A stretch of DNA of 64,000 bases, taken from Candidatus Poribacteria bacterium (GTDB taxonomy: Bacteria > Poribacteria > WGA-4E > WGA-3G). Below are positions 3,401 through 18,527 of this stretch, piece after piece. The notes beneath the pieces are model-generated. The model did not search any database, was not told the origin of the DNA, and was given only the letters and a program-made list of their open reading frames with translations. Every line of letters starts with the position of its first letter. Within the stretch, counting starts at the first letter, position 1. The translations under genes were made by a program, and so were the position numbers. Where the stretch lies: contig OZ243938.1 of the NCBI GenBank assembly GCA_965214095.1, positions 1,856,001-1,920,000 of the forward strand, read 5' to 3'.

Positions 3401-4845
3401 CAATACCTTCGCCAAAATTAGTTGAATAAAATGGGTTTTTGTCTTATAGTTTTACACTATATAACAAAAAAGGACAAAAACCCATGTCAGAAATTATAGC
3501 ACTTTTTTCAGTTCTTAATCTATCTATATCTAAAACAGCGATCCGTCAGTTATGTCAAGTTGTCCTTGCACTGCTTGCGATGACAGGACGGATCACCATG
3601 TTAAATATCTCTCGTTGGACTTCAAAAGGAGGTAGTTACCGCACTATTCAACGCTTTTTCAATACGGTGTTGCCTTGGTCGGCAATGTGCTGGACGTTTT
3701 TTCGCACACACTTGCTTGATCCTGATAGTGTTCATATCTTAGTAGGCGACGAAGTCGTTAGAAACAAAGATGGCAAATGCACCTATGGTTTATCGCGCTT
3801 TTTTTCTTCATTGCATGGGAAAAGCATTCCCGGTTTATCGTTTTTAGCCATATCCTTAGTCAGTGTTCCTCGGCGGCGTTCCTACCCGATGACTATTGAA
3901 CAAATCGTTCGGTGTGAAACAACTTCAAATCCTGGTGCTTCTCCGACTGAAAAGTCAGACAACACCCAGACAAAACAATCTATACGCGGGCGTCCAAAAG
4001 GGAACCGAAACAAAAATAAAAGGGATGTCGTCCTCAGTGATACTTTGAAACAACTTCAAACGATACTCAAAGAGGTGCTACACCTCATTGATAACTTGAT
4101 ACCCATCCGTTATTTTGTCCTGGATGGATATTTTGGGAATAATAACATTTTACAAATGGTCCATCAATGTGGTCTCCATCTTATTTCAAAACTGCGTGCC
4201 GATGCTGCATTGTATCTTCCCCCGACGACCTCTTACAAGCGCAGACGCCTCGCAATCTATGGAGAACGGATACATCCGCATAAGATTGATGAAAAGAACG
4301 CTGTTTGGACACAAACAGTGGACAACCTGAGAACCGATGTGTATCAAATGGAACTACGCCACAAAAAGTTCCCCGACCCATTGAATGTCGTTTGTATCAA
4401 AAAAACAAACCTATCCACGAAACAGCAGGCACACGTCTTATTGTTCAGTTCTGATTTAGCACTTGACGCAGAAAAAATGATAGACTATTATTCACTCCGT
4501 TTTCAAATCGAGTTCAACTTTCGTGATGCCAAACAACATTGGGGTCTGCAAGGTTTCATGAATGTCAACAAAACCCCTGTGAACAATGCGGCAAATCTGT
4601 CAATGTTTATGGTAAATGTCAGTGCAAAACTCATGGAAAAGGACAGATGTCAGAATCCCGAATATAGTGTATTAGATCTTAAATCGCACTACCGAGGTCT
4701 GAAATATGTGCAGGAAATATTAAAAGGACTTCCGCAGAAACCTGAACCTATTGTTATTCAGCAAATCATTGGCCGTCTGAGTTCAATAGGTGCTATTCAC
4801 AACACGCAAGCCAATCTTAATCCTGGATAATTGGCGAAGGTATTG
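3401..4845 (+). mobile_element. Insertion sequence, IS701/IS4-like DDE family
   Basis: Perfect 15-bp terminal IRs CAATACCTTCGCCAA (3401-3415) / TTGGCGAAGGTATTG (4831-4845) around a transposase; no target duplication visible. Confidence 0.85.
3484..4830 (+). CDS. DDE transposase
   Basis: VGDE, LDGYFG and YSLRFQIEFNFRDAKQ (YREK-like) motifs; ORF open from 3439, likely ATG 3484. Confidence 0.9.
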   Translation: MSEIIALFSVLNLSISKTAIRQLCQVVLALLAMTGRITMLNISRWTSKGGSYRTIQRFFNTVLPWSAMCWTFFRTHLLDPDSVHILVGDEVVRNKDGKCTYGLSRFFSSLHGKSIPGLSFLAISLVSVPRRRSYPMTIEQIVRCETTSNPGASPTEKSDNTQTKQSIRGRPKGNRNKNKRDVVLSDTLKQLQTILKEVLHLIDNLIPIRYFVLDGYFGNNNILQMVHQCGLHLISKLRADAALYLPPTTSYKRRRLAIYGERIHPHKIDEKNAVWTQTVDNLRTDVYQMELRHKKFPDPLNVVCIKKTNLSTKQQAHVLLFSSDLALDAEKMIDYYSLRFQIEFNFRDAKQHWGLQGFMNVNKTPVNNAANLSMFMVNVSAKLMEKDRCQNPEYSVLDLKSHYRGLKYVQEILKGLPQKPEPIVIQQIIGRLSSIGAIHNTQANLNPG

Positions 4846-5778
4846 GTATCCCTAACCCGTTTGAGATCTTTGTCTATTCGATTTCCATAGGTATGATGTG
4901 CCTCGTCAGAAAAAACACCTAAATTCGGTAGACTTACAATTTTCTCAAGTCGATGGTTCTCTTCTAATTCCGCCTGTTTTTCTTTCTGTTCTTTTTCATT
5001 TTTTCTCTTAAACTCCTGGAATAGATTATTTTTTTCTTCGTATTTTTTCGCAAAATGATTTTTTCAGTGTTCGTGATGATGATATTGAAGACGCTACCGC
5101 GTTGAACGGGCATATCTTTTGCCGCTACTGGTGCGAATTTTCGGTTTCCCATAAATTCCTGATATAGACTCGGTGGTAGAATCGTATCGTAAGGAACGTC
5201 ACTGATTTTGCGCAGACTTCCAATGATAGTTGTTCCGGGTGCAAAGACAAGTGCGTTTTTCATAAAATCGCTGTCAGGATAACGGAACGCCATTGCGAAT
5301 TCGGTTGCGATCATTGTTCCGATGAGTGTCGTCTTACCTGTGCCCATTGCAAGTGCGAAAATATAACTCGGATACTTCAACGACACAGCCTCATGAACCG
5401 GATTAATTCGCTTCTGCTTAACAAATGCTTGATCATTTTTTACACGTTCCAGAACCGATTCAATGTCTGGCACCCACTGTAACTCGCCAGCACTCATAGG
5501 AATACCCAACGCTTCGCAAAATACTGCGATATCACCACTGTAGTAATGCTTGTATAGTTCTACAATATGCGGTGTATTTCTCAGCAGTCGTAATACCAGT
5601 AGATTTCTAATGCGTAGAATTGTGGTTCTCGCAGATATTTGAGCTGCCCTTCCTCAGGTGAATTGCTATCAAACTGCCAATTCAGTATTTCTCCGATGAG
5701 TGGATATTCGGAACACGAGTATCCCGATTTACGCCATTTCTCTGTATCGTTCCGAAGTTTTTCATACAAGTGTTCCAT
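4846..5778 (-). pseudogene. Type III restriction-like Res subunit / DEAH helicase, frameshifted and truncated by the IS
   Basis: Fragments LREPQFYALE (5581-5778), ALAMGTGKT Walker A (4964-5509) and, in another frame, VFSDEAHHTYG just before the IS end. Confidence 0.8.
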
Positions 5779-5802
5779 ATAAGTCTATCTCCTTGTTTAT
5801 GA

Positions 5803-6984
5803 TCATATTTTTTGAATAAAGCCTTCTATCTGTTTACCTACTCGATCTATAACCCATGATTCATTTATAGGAATATTAAAAGCCCAGATTAGTTGATGAA
5901 TTAATTCTTCAACAATGTCTATCAATTTGTCAGAATTATTGAAATCACGTGGCATGCATTGCGTAGACGCATAAACTTCCATATCAGAACACACTGGACC
6001 ATCCGGTATATTTTCTGTGATTTTTTGTGCATATAATAACCTTTCATCAGGATCATAGAGTTGTATTCGTATGACATTCTGCAACCTTGCTGACACCTCA
6101 ATATTCCCTACATATTCACATTTCTCGTAGAGTCTTTTTGCCTGATATATTAGAACACTAATGGTACGAATAAAATCACAATAATTAACAGCTACACCAA
6201 TAAGTTCATGATGCACATTTGATTGCTGATGCTCAGGTAATACACTTCTATGATAGACAATACCATATTCATTTAATTCAAAAAATATGTTGTCATTTCT
6301 AACATTAGCGACTCCGCCTGCGACCTTTCTGGGTGGGTATGTCACACGCTCAAGTAACTCATAAATCTCCGATGTTGTAATCACAGGACGATACGGGTAT
6401 ACAGGCTGTGCAATGACCGTTAGACTCGGCTTTTTTTGTACACTGAAACGTTTTGCCCTTTCTTCAATACGATCCAATATTTGCTTCGCATTCTCCTGTG
6501 AATCCTCACGACGTTTGAACATATACGCAATTCTGTTCATATCTGCAAGGTCATAAGGTTCTGTAATGCTACCCGTGCGAATATAGGTTCTTTTTGAGTT
6601 TTGAATCGCATGCGGGGCTTGAATACTTTCATCGACACGAACTATGACGACTATGTTAGTAGAATTAGGAACATCAACGATTTTTATTTCTGGTATAACG
6701 GCAGGATAAATTCCCTCAAGTGAACTCTGCTGAATTCGCTCCTCAAATCCAGGTACGTTGGGTATACCCTTAATAGGAAAAATAACTTGGTTCTTTGTTT
6801 GTTCGGATTCAACTCCTATTAAAAATATTCCCCCGAAGGTATTTGCAAAAGCCGACACCATTTTTGGTATGTGTTTTTTTGCGTCTATTTGCCTTTTATA
6901 CTCAACCCGTACTCCTTCTGGTTGCTCTCTACAAAAAGTGTTGATATCTTCAAATGTGATTTCATCTAATGATTTTGTAAACAT
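5803..6984 (-). CDS. Schlafen/AlbA_2 domain protein
   Basis: EGVRVEYK, VSAFANTFGGIFLIGV and YIRTGS motifs. Confidence 0.85.
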   Translation of the reverse strand: MFTKSLDEITFEDINTFCREQPEGVRVEYKRQIDAKKHIPKMVSAFANTFGGIFLIGVESEQTKNQVIFPIKGIPNVPGFEERIQQSSLEGIYPAVIPEIKIVDVPNSTNIVVIVRVDESIQAPHAIQNSKRTYIRTGSITEPYDLADMNRIAYMFKRREDSQENAKQILDRIEERAKRFSVQKKPSLTVIAQPVYPYRPVITTSEIYELLERVTYPPRKVAGGVANVRNDNIFFELNEYGIVYHRSVLPEHQQSNVHHELIGVAVNYCDFIRTISVLIYQAKRLYEKCEYVGNIEVSARLQNVIRIQLYDPDERLLYAQKITENIPDGPVCSDMEVYASTQCMPRDFNNSDKLIDIVEELIHQLIWAFNIPINESWVIDRVGKQIEGFIQKI

Positions 6985-7826: not shown

Positions 7827-8792
7827 TCATTTTTGATACAGAAAAACCAAAACATTAGAACCAAGACCCCGTTTATGGGTTCCAGGTAAAATTATTGCTT
7901 CAACGTAGACTTCAATGTTTTGATTTGAAGAATTGATGGTAACAGGACCTTGATATGGAAACCGAGTTTCAGATACTTTGTAGATTGGAGATGATTCCTC
8001 AATTGATTTGTATTTAGGTATGTAAGTGGAGAAGTTTTTTGTTGGAAAAAAATACTGAACTCGTAACTTTTTCAGCGGTGGTTCCCAATGAAAATCATTA
8101 AACAACTTTAATTGATTCTTTTCTTGTTCAATTTTATCTATTTCTGTAGGTTTGTGACTGTAAGACAGGACCATCATAGCGCAAGACTCAAGACTTGTTG
8201 TAATCATACGAATAGATGTTGCTTCTATAGAGGTTTCATACCTTCTTGAAAGTTCTTGCAGAGATTTTAATGATACACCCATTCCTTTAACATCCAAATC
8301 AAATTCAGGTGTAGGCATGATAATTTCACTTGCTCCGAGATCACACAAAAACTCTACCTCATTTTGAGGATCGAATTGACCACTCCGGTGGCGTGCCTTG
8401 TACTGGTCTTGATAACCGGGGAATAAAGTATGAGCAATTTCATGAGCTATTGAAAAGTTTTGCCGTGCTTTAGGTTTCTTTGGGTTGTATCGGATTACCA
8501 TCCTCCCATTCTCTGCGGGGTGGAGTTCCGCGTCTTCACTATGTGTTAATTCATCAGATTTCTCACACGGGATTCCCAATATAGATGCAAGAACTTGTGG
8601 ATTGAAAGGCGGCCCATCCCATGATATACCCTTAGCTTCAGCAATATCCCTAGCTTCAGCAAGCTTTTCCTGGGCTAATTTCCGGATAATTTGTTCCGGA
8701 TCTTGAGAAATGTCTGAATAACATTCTATGAGTCGCACAACTGAATTATGAGAATAATACTTCTTACCAACTTTAATAATATTATGTTTCAT
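7827..8792 (-). CDS. ImmA/IrrE-family metallopeptidase (CapP-like)
   Basis: RQNFSIAHEIAH zincin motif and E.LCD.GASEIIMP; ATG 8792 overlaps the HTH stop (ATGA). Confidence 0.9.
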   Translation of the reverse strand: MKHNIIKVGKKYYSHNSVVRLIECYSDISQDPEQIIRKLAQEKLAEARDIAEAKGISWDGPPFNPQVLASILGIPCEKSDELTHSEDAELHPAENGRMVIRYNPKKPKARQNFSIAHEIAHTLFPGYQDQYKARHRSGQFDPQNEVEFLCDLGASEIIMPTPEFDLDVKGMGVSLKSLQELSRRYETSIEATSIRMITTSLESCAMMVLSYSHKPTEIDKIEQEKNQLKLFNDFHWEPPLKKLRVQYFFPTKNFSTYIPKYKSIEESSPIYKVSETRFPYQGPVTINSSNQNIEVYVEAIILPGTHKRGLGSNVLVFLYQK

Positions 8793-9193
8793 TGTCTCTT
8801 CATCACATATCGGATCGATGTCAGAATATGCTCCCAATCATCAACAGTCTTTGGTTGGTTACCTCTATACCGAATATTCATTAGCATTCGCACATCCTCC
8901 CTTTGAATATCAAGTTCTTTTCCTCGTGTATTAATAAATTTGCGTAATACATCCGGAATATCTTCATCTTCAAAGTCTTCCGCATAAACGCGCACAGGCT
9001 GGTCAAGGAGATCTGCAATAGTTATACCAAGTGCCGAAGCAATTTTAAGCAGTATCTCAGCTGAAGGTTGCTTACTCAGACTGTTTTCAAGCTGTGATAA
9101 ATAAGCTTTAGAGACATCAGCTTTTTCAGCCAACTGGTTTAGAGAAAATCCTTCTTTTTCCCGGAGTTTTTTGATCTTTTGACCTAGAAGCAT
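8789..9193 (-). CDS. XRE-family HTH regulator (CapH-like)
   Basis: LGQKIKKLREKEGFSLNQLAEKADVSKAYLSQLE HTH; C-terminal IRYRGNQPKTVDDW; paired with IrrE peptidase, divergent from the defence operon. Confidence 0.9.
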   Translation of the reverse strand: MLLGQKIKKLREKEGFSLNQLAEKADVSKAYLSQLENSLSKQPSAEILLKIASALGITIADLLDQPVRVYAEDFEDEDIPDVLRKFINTRGKELDIQREDVRMLMNIRYRGNQPKTVDDWEHILTSIRYVMKRQ

Positions 9194-9242
9194 GTGAATT
9201 TCCTTCTTATTTTATGTTTATCTTATTATTTTACACGAATTT

Positions 9243-9312
9243 GTTCGTTATTACAAACTTTTCTTGACAAATGGGTTTGTTATAGCGTATAATAGTATTC
9301 GTAAAATAGAAC
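9243..9312 (+). promoter_or_regulatory. Consensus sigma70 promoter overlapped by three imperfect palindromic operator-like boxes
   Basis: TTGACA (9264-9269) N18 TATAAT (9288-9293); boxes GTTCG-N6-CAAAC 9243-9258, GTTTG-N6-CGTAT 9275-9290, ATTCG-N6-AGAAC 9297-9312. Confidence 0.65.
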
Positions 9313-9341
9313 ACCTGTATGGTTATTGAGTGATGTAATAT

Positions 9342-10484
9342 ATGAAAACGAATTCCGAAAATGGAGGAAAAGTTTTGCACAAATTAACAATTTACCCGTT
9401 GGGAAACGCTGATTGTTGCTTAATTGATCTTGAAAATGGTCAAAAGATACTAATAGACTACGCCAACGTAGGTAATTCAGAGGACGATGATGATTTACGG
9501 ATTGATTTACCTAAAGCACTAGGTGAAGATCTTGAGGATACAGACAAGGATTTTTTTGATATAGTGGCATTTACACATGCAGACGAAGATCACATTAAGG
9601 GGTTTTCTGAGTTCTTCTATCTGGAACACGCACAAAAGTATCAGAGCGATGATAGGTTTAAAATCAATACACTTTGGGTCCCCGCAGCAATCATTCTTGA
9701 AAAATCACCTTCCACAGATGACCATAAAATTTTACGGGCAGAAGCACGGCACCGACTGAAAGAGGGATCTGGAATTCGTGTCTTTTCTAAACCTGAAGCT
9801 TTAGAGGAATGGCTGGAAGAGCAAGATTTGAGGTTAGAAGATCGAGAGGAACTAATCACGCACGCTGGAGTAACCGTCCCTGGATACAAAAAGTCATCAG
9901 AGGGTGTTGAATTTTTCGTACACGCGCCTTTTTCTGATAGCATTGAGGATGATGTAATTGAGAGGAACGATGCAGCACTTGTAGTTCAAGCCACTTTTCA
10001 ATGTGAAAATGTTGAAACTCAATTGATTCTAGGGTCAGATATTACTCATGAAGTCTGGAATGATATTGTCCGAGTAACGCAACATTACAATCGAGATGAC
10101 CGGTTGAAATGGGACATATTTAAAATCTCACATCATAGTAGTTACACAGCACTGAGCGATACAAAAGGGACAACGAAAACTACCCCTGTGGAAAAAGTTA
10201 AATGGCTATTTGAACAAGGGCACGATAAGGCAATATTAGTTTCAACGAGCGATCCGATTCCATCGGAAGATACAACTCAACCACCACATCGGCAAGCATC
10301 AAACTATTATAAAGACGTTGTTAAGAAAATTGACGGTGAATTTAAGGTGACAATGGAACACCCGAAAAAATCCGAACCTAAACCACTTGCCATTACTATT
10401 GACAGTTCAAAAGCAACAATAGTGAAACGAAGTACAGGCGGTACTAATAATATTACTAAGCAACGTTCTCCAAGATTTGGATAA
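9342..10484 (+). CDS. Metallo-beta-lactamase-fold hydrolase (ComEC/Rec2-like) with flexible tail ending RFG
   Basis: GNADC, LIDY, THADEDHIKG, GSD and KISHHSS motifs; probable TTG start at 9375 after GGAGG. Confidence 0.85.
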   Translation: MKTNSENGGKVLHKLTIYPLGNADCCLIDLENGQKILIDYANVGNSEDDDDLRIDLPKALGEDLEDTDKDFFDIVAFTHADEDHIKGFSEFFYLEHAQKYQSDDRFKINTLWVPAAIILEKSPSTDDHKILRAEARHRLKEGSGIRVFSKPEALEEWLEEQDLRLEDREELITHAGVTVPGYKKSSEGVEFFVHAPFSDSIEDDVIERNDAALVVQATFQCENVETQLILGSDITHEVWNDIVRVTQHYNRDDRLKWDIFKISHHSSYTALSDTKGTTKTTPVEKVKWLFEQGHDKAILVSTSDPIPSEDTTQPPHRQASNYYKDVVKKIDGEFKVTMEHPKKSEPKPLAITIDSSKATIVKRSTGGTNNITKQRSPRFG

Positions 10485-12729
10485 TATTTCTATGAAACAA
10501 GAATTCTGTAAAATTGATGGCGAAGTTGTTTCTATTGATGATGTTAATATATCAAAAGCAAAGGACTTCGCCAATTCAGTCATATCTTCGACTTTCGCAC
10601 ATTTTATTGAGTGTAGACGAACAAATGCTAATAATGAGATCATCGTTTTCAACGCTGAAGTCGAAATTGGTCAAAAGACCGTATACGACATAAAACCTCT
10701 TGAAAGAATCGCGGTTGAGTTTGATGTATCTGATAACTTCATGCCAGAAGTGTTAGCACTCCGTAAGAACTTTCCCTCCGTGCCACATATTAATCTACGA
10801 TCTAGAGAATTTCCAAGAAGTTTGTGCGTAACAGAACTTCCATACAGTGAGTTAAAACTGCAATGGACTGGAATAACTTTTGTTGAAGACATTAGAAGAT
10901 GGTTGGCAGAAGCAGCCAAAGATACTCTTCATGCTGAAGACCAACCCTTAGAGCCACTACTTGGGACGGCAAAAGATATTATCGTTCTTCCATACGATTT
11001 GTTCACAAGAGGCAGCATTTCTGAGCCACTGATTATTCCCATAGAAAATAAAATAAACGGACGCAGTATATATATTGCAGAACGTCACGTTGATATAGAC
11101 CAGAATCCATTAAAATATGTTGCAACTGGCTTCCTAAGCGACTGCTTAACCCATGGCATTATTAGTAAGGAACCAGCGAATCTGTACGAATTACACCAGT
11201 TTTTAGAATGTGGTAATCTCGATCTATTAAAGGAGATACAACAGCGTTTACACAAGTGGAGAAATGACATAAGAGCAGACGATATCTTATCTGCAAAGCT
11301 AATCCTGATTGTAGAACTACCGAAATCAAGGTACAGAAATACCTCACAGGAAACCACCGAGTACAAAGCTTTTTTAATTCAGAAATCGATAGAGGAAATT
11401 GGTTGCGAACTTGGTTTGTGGACAGCACATGATGGTTATGCTGTCCCGATTCTCGGTATCAATCAGCTTGAGAAAGGTGATACCATTTCAGTAGACATGC
11501 TTAATCCTGTCTTCTCACTTTCAAGTGAATTTGCTGCTCAACTTAATGGTTTTTCTTCAAGATCTAATACAAAAATAACTGCAGTTGGTTTAGGTGCTCT
11601 TGGTTCACAGGTTTTTATGAACATGGTTCGAGCTGGTCAAGGTCAGTGGACATTGGTTGACAAAGACATCTTGCTTCCGCACAATCTCTCTCGTCATGCC
11701 CTTGACGGTTTTTCTATTGGTTTCCCTAAAGTTCACGGTCTCGCTGTAAAAGCGAATAAAACAGTAGACGGGAATCCAATTGCTGACTGGATAGCTGCTG
11801 ATGTAATAAATCCTTCAGAATCTCAAGAAAACCTGCAAAAAATGAATGGAGCATTTAGCACGGCTGAAATTATCTTAGATGCTTCGGCTTCGGTACAAGT
11901 TGCACGATATTTAGTTTATAATGTTGATTCATCAGCTCGACGAATATCGATATTTCTGAACCCGCAAGGAGCAGATGTCACCTTATTAGCGGAAGATATA
12001 CAACGGAGCGCCACACTTGACTCTATAGAGATGCAATACTACCGACACCTTATAAATAATGACTATTTGGCAGATCATCTAAAGAGGAATGGTGAACGTA
12101 TTCGTTATGCGACTTCATGTCGTGATGTTAGCTATACTATTCCACAAGATTTTGTAGCACTGCAAGCCGCAATATGTAGTCGCGCAGTCCATCAATTAAC
12201 GTCTAATGATCAGGCGTTTCTGTCAATATGGCGAACTGACGAAGAACAATTCAGCGTGAAAAAATACTCATTCACTGTGAAAAAAACTATTAATTCTCAA
12301 AAAGGTGAATGGACATTATGTACCGATGAGGGATTCATCAAAAAAGTTCACGATGAACGTGAAAAGAAACTTCCAAACGAAACAGGAGGTGTGTTGGTTG
12401 GATCGTATGATATGCAGCGGAAAATCGTCTATGTTGTCGATTGTCTACCTTCTCCCTCAGATAGCGAAGAATGGCCAACTCACTATATTCGCGGCTGTCA
12501 AGGGTTACGTTCGCGAATAGAAGAAATACAGCAGATCACAGAAAACCAATTAAGATATGTTGGTGAATGGCATTCTCATCCACCGGACTGTAGTGTTAAA
12601 CCAAGCCAAGATGATCGAAAAGGCTTCAAGTGGATATCACATTATATGAAGCAGGATGGTTTACCACCTTTGTTGCTCATTGTAGGTGATACCGAAAAAT
12701 ATGCATTTTACCTAGAAGAAATTGGTTAA
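10477..12729 (+). CDS. Prokaryotic E2 - E1 (ThiF) - JAB fusion (Cap2/Cap3-like)
   Basis: E2 PHIN...SLC; E1 GLGALGS, DKDILLPHNLSRH, DASAS, candidate catalytic TSC; JAB ETGGVLVG and GEWHSHP..PSQDD. Confidence 0.9.
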   Translation: MDNISMKQEFCKIDGEVVSIDDVNISKAKDFANSVISSTFAHFIECRRTNANNEIIVFNAEVEIGQKTVYDIKPLERIAVEFDVSDNFMPEVLALRKNFPSVPHINLRSREFPRSLCVTELPYSELKLQWTGITFVEDIRRWLAEAAKDTLHAEDQPLEPLLGTAKDIIVLPYDLFTRGSISEPLIIPIENKINGRSIYIAERHVDIDQNPLKYVATGFLSDCLTHGIISKEPANLYELHQFLECGNLDLLKEIQQRLHKWRNDIRADDILSAKLILIVELPKSRYRNTSQETTEYKAFLIQKSIEEIGCELGLWTAHDGYAVPILGINQLEKGDTISVDMLNPVFSLSSEFAAQLNGFSSRSNTKITAVGLGALGSQVFMNMVRAGQGQWTLVDKDILLPHNLSRHALDGFSIGFPKVHGLAVKANKTVDGNPIADWIAADVINPSESQENLQKMNGAFSTAEIILDASASVQVARYLVYNVDSSARRISIFLNPQGADVTLLAEDIQRSATLDSIEMQYYRHLINNDYLADHLKRNGERIRYATSCRDVSYTIPQDFVALQAAICSRAVHQLTSNDQAFLSIWRTDEEQFSVKKYSFTVKKTINSQKGEWTLCTDEGFIKKVHDEREKKLPNETGGVLVGSYDMQRKIVYVVDCLPSPSDSEEWPTHYIRGCQGLRSRIEEIQQITENQLRYVGEWHSHPPDCSVKPSQDDRKGFKWISHYMKQDGLPPLLLIVGDTEKYAFYLEEIG

Positions 12730-13903
12730 CATTAAAATGGAATGTAAAACGTCAGAAAATGATTTGAAAATAGGAATAGCCTTATCAGGTGGAGGCGTTA
12801 GAGCTTCTGTTTTTCACTTGGGGGTTCTTGGTAGACTTGCAGAGGACAAACTCTTGGAGAATATTACGCGCATTTCAACTGTATCTGGAGGAACACTTGT
12901 AACAGGGATGATTTTCTCAATCACAGGATACAAATGGCCGACCAGTGAGTTTTTTCTTCAGCAATGTCTTATCCAGGCGCGCGACTATTTTACTAAAAAA
13001 GATATTCAAACCAAGGCATTCGTTTGGGGTATTCGCAAACCGCTCTCTCTTATTCAAAAAAGAGCGAATTTAATTTCCAAAAGCATTCAAGATTGTTGGA
13101 ATATCTCAGGAAACCTTAATGACCTCCCGCTCCAACCCCGATGGACTATAAACGCCACTACGTATGAATCAGGCAAAAACTGGCGTTTTATCCCGCAGCG
13201 TAGGATGGGTGATTATATCATAAATCATGTCAAAAACCCAAATATTCTTTTAGCCGATGCAATGGCTGCCTCAGCGGCTTATCCGGGATTAATTGGTCCA
13301 CTTACCTTAGATACGCGAAAATACAGCTGGTATGAGTATGAAGGTAAAACGCAAATTCAAACTCAACCGAAATTCAAGAAACTTCACCTTTGGGATGGAG
13401 GGCTCTACGAAAATTTAGGAGTAGAACCTCTCTTCAAAATTGGAGAAAAACACAAATATCACGATGATTGTAATTTTTTGGTTGTAAGTGATGCTTCTAA
13501 TCCTATCGGCAGCAAAAGGCATACTGGGATGTTTTGGAAAAGTGCAATTCGACTTATTGACATTTCAATGGACCAAGTTAGAAGTCTAAGAACCCGCTCT
13601 CTGATAAATCACTTTGAAAATAATGTAAATTCGGGCGTTTACTTCAAAATAGGGAATACTGGGCGTAAAATATTAGAAGCAGTGGAAACAAACGTTAATA
13701 TAATTGATAAGTTAACAGAAAATAGTTTGTCACCAAGAGATGCACATTTGGCAGAAAATTTTGAAACTACCCTAAGGAAACTATCAGTAGACGAATATGA
13801 CTTACTATATCAACATGGTTGGGAGGTTGCAAACTTCACACTTCAGGCACGATGCCCAAATCTTTTCCAAAACATGTTTTGGAAACCCAACTTCTTAGTT
13901 TGA
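12722..13903 (+). CDS. Patatin-like phospholipase
   Basis: LSGGGVRA oxyanion loop, STVSGG nucleophile elbow, ASAAYP, LWDGG; start overlaps upstream gene by 8 bp. Confidence 0.9.
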   Translation: MVNIKMECKTSENDLKIGIALSGGGVRASVFHLGVLGRLAEDKLLENITRISTVSGGTLVTGMIFSITGYKWPTSEFFLQQCLIQARDYFTKKDIQTKAFVWGIRKPLSLIQKRANLISKSIQDCWNISGNLNDLPLQPRWTINATTYESGKNWRFIPQRRMGDYIINHVKNPNILLADAMAASAAYPGLIGPLTLDTRKYSWYEYEGKTQIQTQPKFKKLHLWDGGLYENLGVEPLFKIGEKHKYHDDCNFLVVSDASNPIGSKRHTGMFWKSAIRLIDISMDQVRSLRTRSLINHFENNVNSGVYFKIGNTGRKILEAVETNVNIIDKLTENSLSPRDAHLAENFETTLRKLSVDEYDLLYQHGWEVANFTLQARCPNLFQNMFWKPNFLV

Positions 13904-15635: not shown

Positions 15636-17063
15636 TTACTTAACCAAAACTACCCAATGCGATTTTGTGGGTGGAGATAACGTTATGCTATCACTGAACG
15701 GAATTTTCTGTTCTTTTTTCCATTCGGCTTTTCGGATATTTAGCCATCTGATTGAAATTGTATCAGCATCTGTCTTTTCAACAGCACTAAGGTGCAACTC
15801 AACCGACCCTCCTTTAGGAAAATAGACCGCATATTCCTTTCCAAGGTTAACAAAGGCATAAGCTTCGTTTTCTTCTCTGTTGGAGAGCAGGTGATTGTGG
15901 GGATGACTCTTAAACACATCCATTTCGTCTGTGATCATTCGCATACTCTTGATATTCGCTTGCGACAGTTTGCTTAATCCGAGTCCATTAGGCGGACGGT
16001 GAGACCGCGCTGATGCGCATCCACCAAAGATATTTCGCCAGAATCGCGCCAACCCATCTTGTGTCTTACCATATTTCCCGGTGTCAGCACCGTAAATCTT
16101 AACATTATTGATGGGACGTAACGGTGAAAGATTTACTCTATATTGTTGTGCATTATCCCAATGTGTCTGGCCTCTTTGAGTGTTATTTTGTGATATATCA
16201 CAAAACGAATATATCTCTGGATGATCCTTTGTATTTCGATGTTGCCTATGATTTATTTCCCACGGATTCCACATTTCAGTCGTTTCAACACCGCGTCCAA
16301 CCTCTGCTGCTCGACTCTTGATGTAAGTTGACCAGTATTCACCCCATGCAGGCGTAACTGCAGTCTCATTGTCCATACAGTAGAGTATGTGTCCATAAGG
16401 TAGTGTCTCTGAAAGAAGCTTATCCACATATTTTTGTTGATATTTTAGGACAATTTCCTGATTGTTCTTTTTCGGCACAGACCAGAAGAAGTTATTTTCC
16501 GCTGCACTTGGATGACTGTCAACAACAGTGGGTAACTCTGTTTCCTCTGTGGTGTAATTGCTATTATTTTTCGGATTAAATGGATTGACATCCCAATAAT
16601 CTCTGTAATAGTTGAAAGTTGCCCACACTTCAATCTGAACGATAATATCCAACTCGTGAGTCCATTTGATGAAGTTACCAAAACGTGTCCAAAATTCATT
16701 GCTCCACTGATTTAAGTCATACAGATCACCGACTTTTTTAAAGGGAGGCACATCGACTGCCTCAGTCCATCCCATCGTAGACCTAACATAGTTTCCACCG
16801 ACAGACTTCAATAATTCAAGATGCTCTTTGAGATTCGGTATCTGAAACAGATTGTCATCAACTGAACCACCGAGTAGCAGCACAGGTTCGCCTTTATATT
16901 GCCAGTAACGCGGATTATCTTTATAAATCTGGATTCTGTTTTTCTCCATCTCTATATCCTCGTTGGCTTCGGCATCTGAATCCGCTGTTATGCAAACAGA
17001 CATGAATAGCAGTTGAGACAATACAAATATGCTAACTAAGAGTGGTCGGCACAGACATTTCAT
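15636..17063 (-). CDS. Secreted glycoside-hydrolase-like TIM-barrel protein with small C-terminal beta domain (paralogue B)
   Basis: Signal peptide; GGNYVRSTM, YCMDNET, C-terminal YAVYFPKGG..WLN..HWVVLV; likely ATG 17063. Confidence 0.65.
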   Translation of the reverse strand: MKCLCRPLLVSIFVLSQLLFMSVCITADSDAEANEDIEMEKNRIQIYKDNPRYWQYKGEPVLLLGGSVDDNLFQIPNLKEHLELLKSVGGNYVRSTMGWTEAVDVPPFKKVGDLYDLNQWSNEFWTRFGNFIKWTHELDIIVQIEVWATFNYYRDYWDVNPFNPKNNSNYTTEETELPTVVDSHPSAAENNFFWSVPKKNNQEIVLKYQQKYVDKLLSETLPYGHILYCMDNETAVTPAWGEYWSTYIKSRAAEVGRGVETTEMWNPWEINHRQHRNTKDHPEIYSFCDISQNNTQRGQTHWDNAQQYRVNLSPLRPINNVKIYGADTGKYGKTQDGLARFWRNIFGGCASARSHRPPNGLGLSKLSQANIKSMRMITDEMDVFKSHPHNHLLSNREENEAYAFVNLGKEYAVYFPKGGSVELHLSAVEKTDADTISIRWLNIRKAEWKKEQKIPFSDSITLSPPTKSHWVVLVK

Positions 17064-17090
17064 TAGATTGTCTCTCAAATTTGAATACAT

Positions 17091-18527
17091 CTATTTCACT
17101 TGAACCAAAACTGTCCAATGGACTTCGGTCGGTGCACTTAGCGTGATACTATCACTATAGGGAATTTCCGATTCTATTTTCCATTCGCTTTTATTGATGT
17201 TTAACCATCTGATTTTCACATTTTTAGCATCTTCCTGCTTACCAACACTCAGGTTAAGATCAACCAAACCACCTTTTGGAAAATAGACAGCATATTCCTT
17301 TCCAGGATTGGCAATCGTATATGCTTCGTTATCTTCTCGATTAGATAGCAGTTCATTGTTAGGTTCGCATGTAAAGATGTCCATTTCGTCAGTAATCATA
17401 CGCATACTCTTGAGATGTGGTTGTGCAACTTTGCTCAAACCGACTCCGCTATCCGGACGGTGAAACCGTGCTGATGCGAATCCGCCAAAGATGTTTCGCC
17501 AGAACCTTTCCAGTCCATCTCTTGTACTACCGAATCGTCCACCATTAGCACCGTAAATCTTAATATTGTTGATAGGACGTATCGGAGATAGTTCTGCGCG
17601 TATTTTCTGTGCATTATCCCAATGCTTTTGACGTTTTTGGTGGTTATTCTGCGATATATCACAGAAGGAATAGGTTTCTGGGTGGTCAAAAGTCGCTTTA
17701 TGTTTCTCGTCAGACAAGTCCCACGGATCCCACATCTCAGTGGTTTCAACAACGCGACCCGCATCAGTTGCCTTTTTCTTGATATAAGTTGACCAGTATT
17801 CACCCCAGGAAGCTGTAACAGCCGTCTCGTTGTCCATGCAATAGAGTATATGTCCATACTGAAGTGTCTCCTCAAGAAGCTTATCCACAAACTTTTCCTG
17901 ATATTTCAATACTATCTCTTGATTCCGTTCTTTAGGAACTGACCAGAAAAAGTTGTTCTTCGCTGCAACAGGATGGTCTTTGACAACAGTAGGTAATCCC
18001 GATTCTTCCACGGTGTAATTGCTGTTATTGATAGGGTTGAAAGGATTCACAGCCCACGGTTCGCGGTAATAGTTGAAAGTTGCCCACACCTCAATCTGCA
18101 CAATAATATCCATCTCGTGTGTCCACTTAATAAAGTCACGAAAACGCTTCCAGAATTCATCGTTCCACTGATTTAAGTCATATTTGTCGCCGACTATTTT
18201 GTGCGGTGGCACATCACCTTCATCGACCCAACTCATCGTAGACCGCACATAATTACCACCGACAGACTTCAATAACTCCAGATGTTCTCTCAGATTCGGT
18301 ATCTGGAATAGGTTATCTTCAACTGAACCACCAATTAGCAGGATGGGTTCACCCTTATACTGCCAATAACGCGGATTATCTTTGTAAATCTGTATCCTAT
18401 CTTTTTCCATTTCTACATCCTTCTTGGCTTGGGTATCCCATGCTACTATGGAGCAAACGGATACGAATATTAACAGAAACAACACAAGTTTGCCGATAGG
18501 CATGTGTTGACTGTATCGGCTTTTCAT
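17091..18527 (-). CDS. Secreted glycoside-hydrolase-like protein (paralogue A)
   Basis: Highly similar to 15636-17063 along the full length; signal peptide. Confidence 0.65.
   Translation of the reverse strand: MKSRYSQHMPIGKLVLFLLIFVSVCSIVAWDTQAKKDVEMEKDRIQIYKDNPRYWQYKGEPILLIGGSVEDNLFQIPNLREHLELLKSVGGNYVRSTMSWVDEGDVPPHKIVGDKYDLNQWNDEFWKRFRDFIKWTHEMDIIVQIEVWATFNYYREPWAVNPFNPINNSNYTVEESGLPTVVKDHPVAAKNNFFWSVPKERNQEIVLKYQEKFVDKLLEETLQYGHILYCMDNETAVTASWGEYWSTYIKKKATDAGRVVETTEMWDPWDLSDEKHKATFDHPETYSFCDISQNNHQKRQKHWDNAQKIRAELSPIRPINNIKIYGANGGRFGSTRDGLERFWRNIFGGFASARFHRPDSGVGLSKVAQPHLKSMRMITDEMDIFTCEPNNELLSNREDNEAYTIANPGKEYAVYFPKGGLVDLNLSVGKQEDAKNVKIRWLNINKSEWKIESEIPYSDSITLSAPTEVHWTVLVQVK

Follow-up and report, generated by a model that had tools for sequence, protein, structure and literature searches.

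The window analysed here is a 64,000-nucleotide (nt) stretch of a Candidatus Poribacteria bacterium (lineage Bacteria; Poribacteria; WGA-4E; WGA-3G; GenBank assembly GCA_965214095.1, contig OZ243938.1, positions 1,856,001 to 1,920,000 of the forward strand), and the positions given below are counted from its first letter. Judged by its gene families, the locus at 7827–13903 is a 6A-MBL anti-phage system, i.e., a metallo-beta-lactamase (MBL) fold enzyme followed by a triple-module E2-E1-JAB protein, to which CapH/CapP regulators and an added patatin belong. Operon type 6a was defined by Iyer, Burroughs and Aravind in 2006, who describe it as usually a two-gene arrangement, and the anti-phage activity of 6A-MBL in Pseudomonas aeruginosa is credited to van den Berg et al. 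2024 in reviews and later papers. The host is a member of an uncultivated lineage, and the closest records to the locus are Candidatus Poribacteria metagenome-assembled genomes. Its genome holds one copy of the system, and across the phylum the system was found in 6 of 151 genomes and, beyond these, in 243 plasmid records, a patchy distribution as is usual for defence systems; of these matching plasmids, 119 come from Klebsiella. An earlier sequence-only reading of this DNA had proposed that the glycine-ended tail of the MBL enzyme is a handle for ubiquitin-like conjugation, and it is this tail, its conservation among homologues and its probable use by the adjoining E2-E1-JAB protein that form the subject of the present analysis.

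The MBL-fold enzyme (380 residues) is encoded at 9342–10484 on the plus strand, and its C-terminus reads ...STGGTNNITKQRSPRFG (...IVKRSTGGTNNITKQRSPRFG) before a TAA stop at 10482–10484. The protein matches the NCBIfam equivalog NF058524 (“6A-MBL_enzyme”, anti-phage 6A-MBL system MBL-fold protein) over residues 18–356 with 403.9 bits against a cut-off of 220, while the PADLOC models that match it are of MBL type (LmuA, RTasMBL, and Avs1a) and a Pfam search returned no match. An AlphaFold2 (AF2) model built from an alignment of 115 sequences has a mean predicted local distance difference test score (pLDDT) of 91.7 and shows the alpha-beta/beta-alpha fold of MBL enzymes. In a Foldseek search the closest solved structure was the beta-lactamase-like domain of ComEC (9ic4, E 1.9e-15), ComEC domains of this kind were again the closest solved relatives in a sequence-profile search, and the best PDB matches of the model were MBL enzymes and not beta-grasp proteins. 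The metal motif H79-A-D81-E-D83-H84 together with H194, D233, and H264/H265 occupies invariant or near-invariant columns of the same alignment. With its conserved metal motif and with ComEC domains as its closest solved relatives, the MBL is probably catalytically active and would hydrolyse nucleic acid or some other phosphodiester. A beta-grasp domain hidden at the C-terminus was considered and set aside, as the model is an MBL fold and an Atlas search with residues 284–380 returned unnamed clusters only, a result that does not settle the matter at the sub-domain level.

Seven nucleotides beyond the MBL stop begins the gene of the E2-E1-JAB protein (“cap2_3”, 745 residues; 10492–12729, plus strand, read from ATG 10492, with an in-frame TTG at 10477). 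It matches NF058523 (“6A-MBL system cap2_3 protein”) with 632.3 bits against a cut-off of 320, so that both families that mark a 6A-MBL system, the enzyme and the adjacent triple-module protein, are present side by side. Pfam places Prok-E2_A at residues 48–173, ThiF at 358–473 and Prok-JAB at 616–732, in that order, with the E1 region spanning residues ~350–600. The sequence-only reading had described a fused E1-JAB protein: E1 and JAB do share one chain, but the E2 domain in front of them had been overlooked. Its further proposal that writer and eraser reside in one polypeptide fits the succession of the three domains within a single predicted chain. In PADLOC, the protein is recognised by the E1-E2 model (4.8e-27) and by the JAB model (4.6e-26), and the Cap3-type JAB model NF050170 matches at 4.8e-8, which is below its own cut-off.

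The residues expected of the three activities are invariant or nearly so in alignments of 22 and 84 sequences, namely H99, N101, and Cys112 in the E2 domain, G366/G368/G371, D390, R401, K413, D463, and Cys543 in the E1 domain, and E630, H694-S-H696, S705, and D708 in the JAB domain. The AF2 model of the protein has a pLDDT of 89.7, and its sole low-confidence loop (residues 536–545) surrounds Cys543, as would be expected in such a model for a mobile catalytic loop. When compared with the PDB by Foldseek, the model most resembles Cap2 as solved in the Cap2-CdnD complex (7to3_A, E 3.8e-26 over 647 columns); next in rank are fragments of the Cap2 E1 with the C-terminus of a CD-NTase (cGAS/DncV-like nucleotidyltransferase) bound to them, the NEDD8 E1, BubCD, and Atg7. 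An oddly fused E2-E1 protein among the relatives (P0362, 1178 residues) carries two methyltransferase Pfam domains and gives no JAB match.

The pairing of the two genes is constant. In related genome loci that share 43–81% MBL identity with the window and that we refer to as its own branch (L001–L027), the MBL gene is directly followed by the E2-E1-JAB gene in 26 of the 26 loci having downstream DNA; one further locus is cut at the end of the MBL gene, and in two loci the E2-E1-JAB protein is split into two open reading frames (ORFs). The operon contains no ubiquitin-like gene, as the sequence-only reading had noted, and between its genes there is no small ORF that might encode one: 7 nt separate the MBL and E2-E1-JAB genes, the E2-E1-JAB and patatin genes are spaced by −8 or +7 nt depending on the patatin start, and the remaining listed ORFs within 9342–13903 are nested in other frames.

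The tail itself comprises residues 364–380 (10431–10481, plus strand), has an abundance of Ser, Thr, Gly, and Asn, and ends in P377-R378-F379-G380, encoded at 10470–10481. The earlier description of an MBL ending in R-F-G with a terminal Gly, placed at 10400–10484, thus agrees with the translation, which ends P-R-F-G before TAA, that interval covering residues ~354–380 and the stop. The disorder that had also been claimed for the tail holds as a prediction: residues 364–380 have an AF2 pLDDT below 50, so the tail is predicted to be flexible.

Conservation of the terminal Gly among homologues, a check named beforehand by the sequence-only reading, was examined in two samples. A homology search with the MBL yielded 2783 proteins within an E-value limit of 1e-5, the best 120 of which make up our close set. 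In this set 93 proteins are Gly-terminated and 92 have R-x-G at the very end, a further 23 carry R-x-G followed by 1–9 unconserved extra residues, and one has a terminal Gly after PRAG plus an extension. A deeper sample consisted of 150 representatives of 50%-identity clusters; with 59 fragments that stop short of the C-terminal region set aside, 91 were left. A terminal R-x-G is present in 33 of these and a terminal Gly lacking the Arg in 13, while in 28 the R-x-G is followed by an extension (in three of them at least 21 residues long, where the R-x-G match is probably a matter of chance) and 17 have none of these. In the alignment of 115 full-length sequences, with identity down to 27%, R378 and G380 are each at least 90% conserved. 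The claim that the Gly is conserved is therefore upheld.

The motif can be followed into plasmid-borne copies, some of them only distantly related to that of the window. The MBL of a Magnetospirillum plasmid (about 50% identity to that of the window) ends in APRAG and that of a Polaromonas plasmid (about 40%) in PPRAG, while the copies from Gluconobacter (48%), E. coli (about 24%), and Xanthomonas (about 22%) have APRAG followed by RWR, VSNQ, and SPR, respectively, and the copy from Clostridium perfringens (about 25%) has PKTYG followed by K. Some of the extensions after the Gly are simply the MBL frame running into the start of the next gene. A few relatives have unusual architectures: the MBL of locus L019 and protein P0121 have duplicated ends (...APRAGYTRAG and ...APRAGRGPSRAG) that resemble either a handle repeated in tandem or a pro-form with R-A-G once more at its end; P0123 (725 residues) has an N-terminal extension of ~350 residues before the MBL and still ends in APRAG; and in P0200 a 442-residue MBL fragment is followed by a JAB-like motif.

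Two comparisons indicate how special this tail is. None of the 10 second MBLs that adjoin 6A systems ends in Gly, so the Gly tail is specific to the MBL that precedes E2-E1-JAB, and none of the eight patatins ends in Gly either. Among the other ORFs of at least 200 residues in the related loci (n = 196), 28 end in Gly and two in R-x-G, and the frequency of the tail in the MBL homologues is far above this chance level. The comparative data define the handle: it is a tail, predicted to be flexible, whose last residues are P-R-x-G and whose Arg and Gly each reach at least 90% conservation.

We consider it likely, with a probability of roughly 0.75, that the MBL is itself the conjugated moiety and is attached through Gly380, as the sequence-only reading had proposed. 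This interpretation draws on the conservation of the Gly, its specificity for the MBL, the linkage to E2-E1-JAB, the conserved catalytic residues, and the Cap2-like fold. By analogy with Cap2 and the CD-NTases, the E1 domain would adenylate the carboxylate of Gly380, the MBL would be handed on as a thioester, first to Cys543 of the E1 and next to Cys112 of the E2, and it would be ligated to an amine, probably that of a lysine, on a target, after which the fused JAB domain could reverse the linkage. Since about one fifth of the close homologues carry extensions after the Gly, the JAB domain may have a second role, trimming these pro-forms of 1–9 extra residues before they can be used, so that it would act in maturation besides erasing. 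Conjugation, in turn, might serve to prime the MBL enzyme or to localise it. After digestion with trypsin, a modified lysine would retain two residues of the tail, Phe-Gly in this organism and Ala-Gly in most homologues, and because of this remnant the conjugation targets should be findable by mass spectrometry.

The sequence-only reading had also suggested modelling the tail in the E1 site. We folded the E2-E1 part (residues 1–600) together with the MBL, using alignments of our own, for which reason the counts of the benchmark apply only roughly. The pair scored 0.60 against 0.01 for the best of three controls, which supports the pairing weakly: the benchmark mark is reached by 58 of 80 solved complexes and by two of 110 mismatched pairs, but those that reach it at a score of at most 0.60 comprise just seven of the 80 solved complexes and both of the passing mismatches. 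The runs shared at least 82% of their contacts, and the partner pLDDT was at least 85. The modelling check thus yielded a weak pairing signal, and the second half of the suggestion, a tail lying in the E1 site, was not displayed by it.

Several observations count against conjugation through Gly380. Besides being weak, the complex prediction reported no interface and did not place the tail in the E1 site, and its score may in part reflect the likeness to the solved Cap2-CD-NTase complex. The motif is absent in four of the 120 close homologues (two apparently truncated, one frameshift-like, and one ending PKAGQ), and 17 of the 91 deep representatives have no R-x-G in their last 45 residues. Four of these 17 (P0124, P0151, P0161, and P0184) are relatives of 480–510 residues with an extra C-terminal domain, and a fifth protein of this type (P0141) was scored as R-x-G with a 21-residue extension, probably by chance. 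The penultimate residue, moreover, is Phe here and Ala in most homologues. As a separate observation on these five long relatives, their extra C-terminal domain measures ~130 residues and their ends are without R-x-G.

Among the other explanations of the tail, the one that fares best, although we regard it as improbable, is that the E1 domain adenylates the MBL C-terminus for thiocarboxylation or some other C-terminal chemistry, in the manner of ThiF-ThiS or MccB-MccA, with no transfer to a target. The E1 domain does count ThiF, MoeB, MccB, and PaaA among its relatives by structure and sequence, and a conserved terminal Gly is likewise a feature of sulfur carriers. Against this reading, an E2 domain with an invariant Cys112 and an H99-x-N101 motif is fused to the E1, the complete E2-linker-E1 architecture is closest to that of the conjugating enzyme Cap2, and the operon is without sulfur-transfer genes according to both the ORF list and Pfam.

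Marginally less probable again is that the tail is merely a JAB-processed pro-peptide, an autoinhibitory element or a degron that regulates the MBL in the absence of any conjugation. The unconserved post-Gly extensions of 1–9 residues in 23 of the 120 close homologues do call for processing, and the JAB residues are conserved, but in 92 of the 120, the window's protein included, translation stops exactly at the Gly and leaves nothing to cleave. Processing alone would also leave the conserved adenylation site and two catalytic cysteines unexplained, and AF2 does not dock the tail on the MBL core (pLDDT below 50).

That the MBL is instead the target of a modifier encoded elsewhere, with a tail unrelated to the E1, appears very unlikely. 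No direct evidence speaks for it, the sole point in its favour being that no conjugation target is known, whereas neither the operon nor the surroundings of the gene pair in the related loci examined contain a gene for a small modifier, be it of the beta-grasp or another type, the system occurs once in the genome, and what is conserved is the carboxylate end of the C-terminus, the very group on which E1 enzymes act in activation. Finally, a nucleotide-level constraint from translational coupling (a ribosome-binding site or a stop-start overlap) is rejected as the cause of the conserved end, for although in most loci the downstream start either follows the MBL stop at 7 nt or is overlapped by it, the P-R-x-G of 27 genes (the window and 26 related loci) is written with six Arg, four Gly, four Ala, and four Pro codons and is kept both at the stop and up to 9 codons before it, and because the tail codons vary synonymously, it is the peptide, rather than a ribosome-binding site, that is under selection.

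The third gene of the operon encodes a patatin-like phospholipase of 393 residues, probably a membrane effector (12722–13903, plus strand; Pfam Patatin 7.3e-16, with GGGxR, S-G-G, and D-G-G motifs in the translation). Its TTG start at 12722 overlaps the end of the E2-E1-JAB gene by 8 nt, and an alternative ATG at 12737 gives a gap of +7 nt. No PADLOC or NCBIfam family matched the protein, a comparison by sequence with solved structures gave no match at E up to 0.01, and an Atlas search returned generic patatin clusters only.

In the window's own branch a third gene lies beside E2-E1-JAB in all 23 loci with enough downstream DNA, and it encodes either a patatin (eight loci) or a small membrane protein (15 loci). 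The patatin homologues are on the same strand in seven loci, in five of which they lie within 30 nt of the E2-E1-JAB stop or overlap it, and convergent in one, while the small protein, which has 2–4 hydrophobic segments, is convergent in six of its 15 loci and is often paired with a second MBL. In two related loci a patatin and a second MBL occur together. Pairs of a transmembrane (TM) protein and a second MBL at L001:9350–10951, L006:9534–11123, L008:9396–11153, and L010:9519–11267 correspond to PDC-M48 (A and B), a candidate system in PADLOC, or show a weak match to Csx27, an accessory protein of CRISPR VI-B.

Outside this branch the picture is mixed. On Gluconobacter plasmid pGOX1, an original 6a example, an overlapping patatin follows E2-E1-JAB, and the C. 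perfringens copy has a homologous TM gene just upstream. The E. coli and Xanthomonas plasmid copies (22–24% identity) have neither a patatin nor a homologue of the TM queries and look like two-gene systems; by a crude hydropathy rule, only unrelated hydrophobic ORFs are found near them. A third gene as a universal feature of 6A is thus rejected on account of these distant plasmid copies, and the count of 23 out of 23 holds for the own branch only. NCBIfam has no model for a third 6A component, and no curated family covers it. The presence of a third gene in every own-branch locus examined means that the two-gene definition of 6A may be incomplete.

The recurrence of a membrane-directed partner suggests that this partner is an effector, in which case the MBL would be either an effector as well or an upstream enzyme. 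The patatin, or the small membrane protein in other loci, would then execute membrane damage. [quoted passage not shown] If this were true, the system would follow a CBASS-like logic built on a hydrolase, in which the product or activity of the MBL, or its Atg8-like attachment via R-F-G by the Atg7/Atg3-like E2-E1, switches on the membrane effector.

Upstream of the operon, and divergent from it, lie two regulatory genes of the CapH/CapP type: a helix-turn-helix (HTH) repressor resembling CapH (8789–9193, minus strand; Pfam HTH_3 3.5e-16, PADLOC capH 1.4e-14) and an M78/IrrE metallopeptidase resembling CapP (7827–8837, minus strand; Pfam Peptidase_M78 3e-14, PADLOC capP 6.7e-25). Together they form the divergent HTH plus M78/IrrE-type pair that is expected of CapH/CapP. 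A sigma-70 promoter with a full consensus (TTGACA-18-TATAAT, 12 of 12 positions; 9264–9293, plus strand) precedes the MBL gene, in the intergenic region that the operon shares with the divergent regulators, and is overlapped by an imperfect inverted repeat of 18 nt (arms 9241–9258 and 9275–9292, 78% complementary), so that the segment 9241–9293 may be inferred from its sequence to hold a candidate CapH operator. The preprint by Lau et al. (2022) describes CapH/CapP beside 6a systems and a triple-module protein homologous to Cap2. We infer from that work that the operon would be held silent by CapH/CapP as long as the DNA is undamaged. In the copies from E. coli (L041) and Xanthomonas (L043), whose plasmids are conjugative or mobilizable, the place of CapH/CapP is taken by a divergently encoded regulator with a WYL domain, resembling CapW.

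The surroundings of the locus in the window resemble a defence island at 3439–6984, with a DDE_5 transposase (3439–4830) and a Schlafen AlbA_2 protein (5803–6984). Between them, the minus-strand ORFs 4964–5509, which has a Walker-A-like GTGKT, and 5581–5778 are apparent pieces of a larger ATPase/helicase gene beside the insertion sequence. On the other side of the operon, 15636–18527 (minus strand) holds two tandem paralogous genes of ~480 residues each, with an N-terminal hydrophobic segment resembling a signal.

Conjugation of the MBL by analogy with Cap2 and the CD-NTases is the field's working model and is already in print. A 2024 preprint (PMC11601596, citing Ledvina 2023, Jenson 2023, and van den Berg 2024) asserts for “MBL pathways” a C-terminal conjugation as in Type II CBASS. 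The Ledvina 2022 preprint makes no mention of MBL, lactamase, Pycsar, or hydrolase, and our literature search found no experiments on the MBL C-terminus, the full van den Berg 2024, the final Ledvina 2023, Ye 2026, Chambers 2024, and supplements lying outside that search. The modest additions made here, namely the strict P-R-x-G motif, the pro-peptide-like extensions and the constant third gene of the own branch, may be new. As a system the locus is ordinary, a member from an uncultivated lineage added to a known defence family. Like the 6a operons of Iyer et al. 2006 and 6A-MBL, it has an MBL-fold gene immediately followed by E2-E1-JAB, but unlike 6A-MBL as described it has a tightly coupled patatin as its third cistron.

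With Type II CBASS the locus shares a Cap2-like E2-E1 fold, a Cap3-like JAB domain, CapH/CapP regulators, a partner enzyme whose flexible C-terminal tail ends in a conserved Gly, and a patatin (compare CapV) that closes the operon. Published work on CBASS (PMC10097602) describes a thioester between Cap2 and the C-terminal Gly of cGAS, the cleavage of conjugates by Cap3, and CD-NTase tails in which the last residue alone is conserved and the penultimate ones vary. In contrast, the tail described here is of the stricter P-R-x-G type, in which at least 90% of sequences keep the Arg at position −2, and many homologues carry extensions after the Gly. The locus further departs from Type II CBASS in that the Cap2 and Cap3 parts form a single polypeptide, no model in PADLOC recognises the patatin, and the partner is an MBL hydrolase instead of a CD-NTase; Pfam, PADLOC, and NCBIfam found no nucleotidyltransferase in the operon, and we do not assign it to Type II CBASS.

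The E1-E2 part is of the Atg7/Cap2 type, unlike the Bil/Bub systems with their canonical BilD type. The likeness to ubiquitin-like modifiers extends to an exposed C-terminal Gly, an Arg two positions before it, precursors with short extensions that need trimming, and a JAB peptidase. Ubiquitin and NEDD8 have tails ending in R-G-G, and that of Atg8 ends in F-G. Unlike these modifiers, which are beta-grasp proteins, the putative modifier of this locus is a 380-residue enzyme of the MBL fold.

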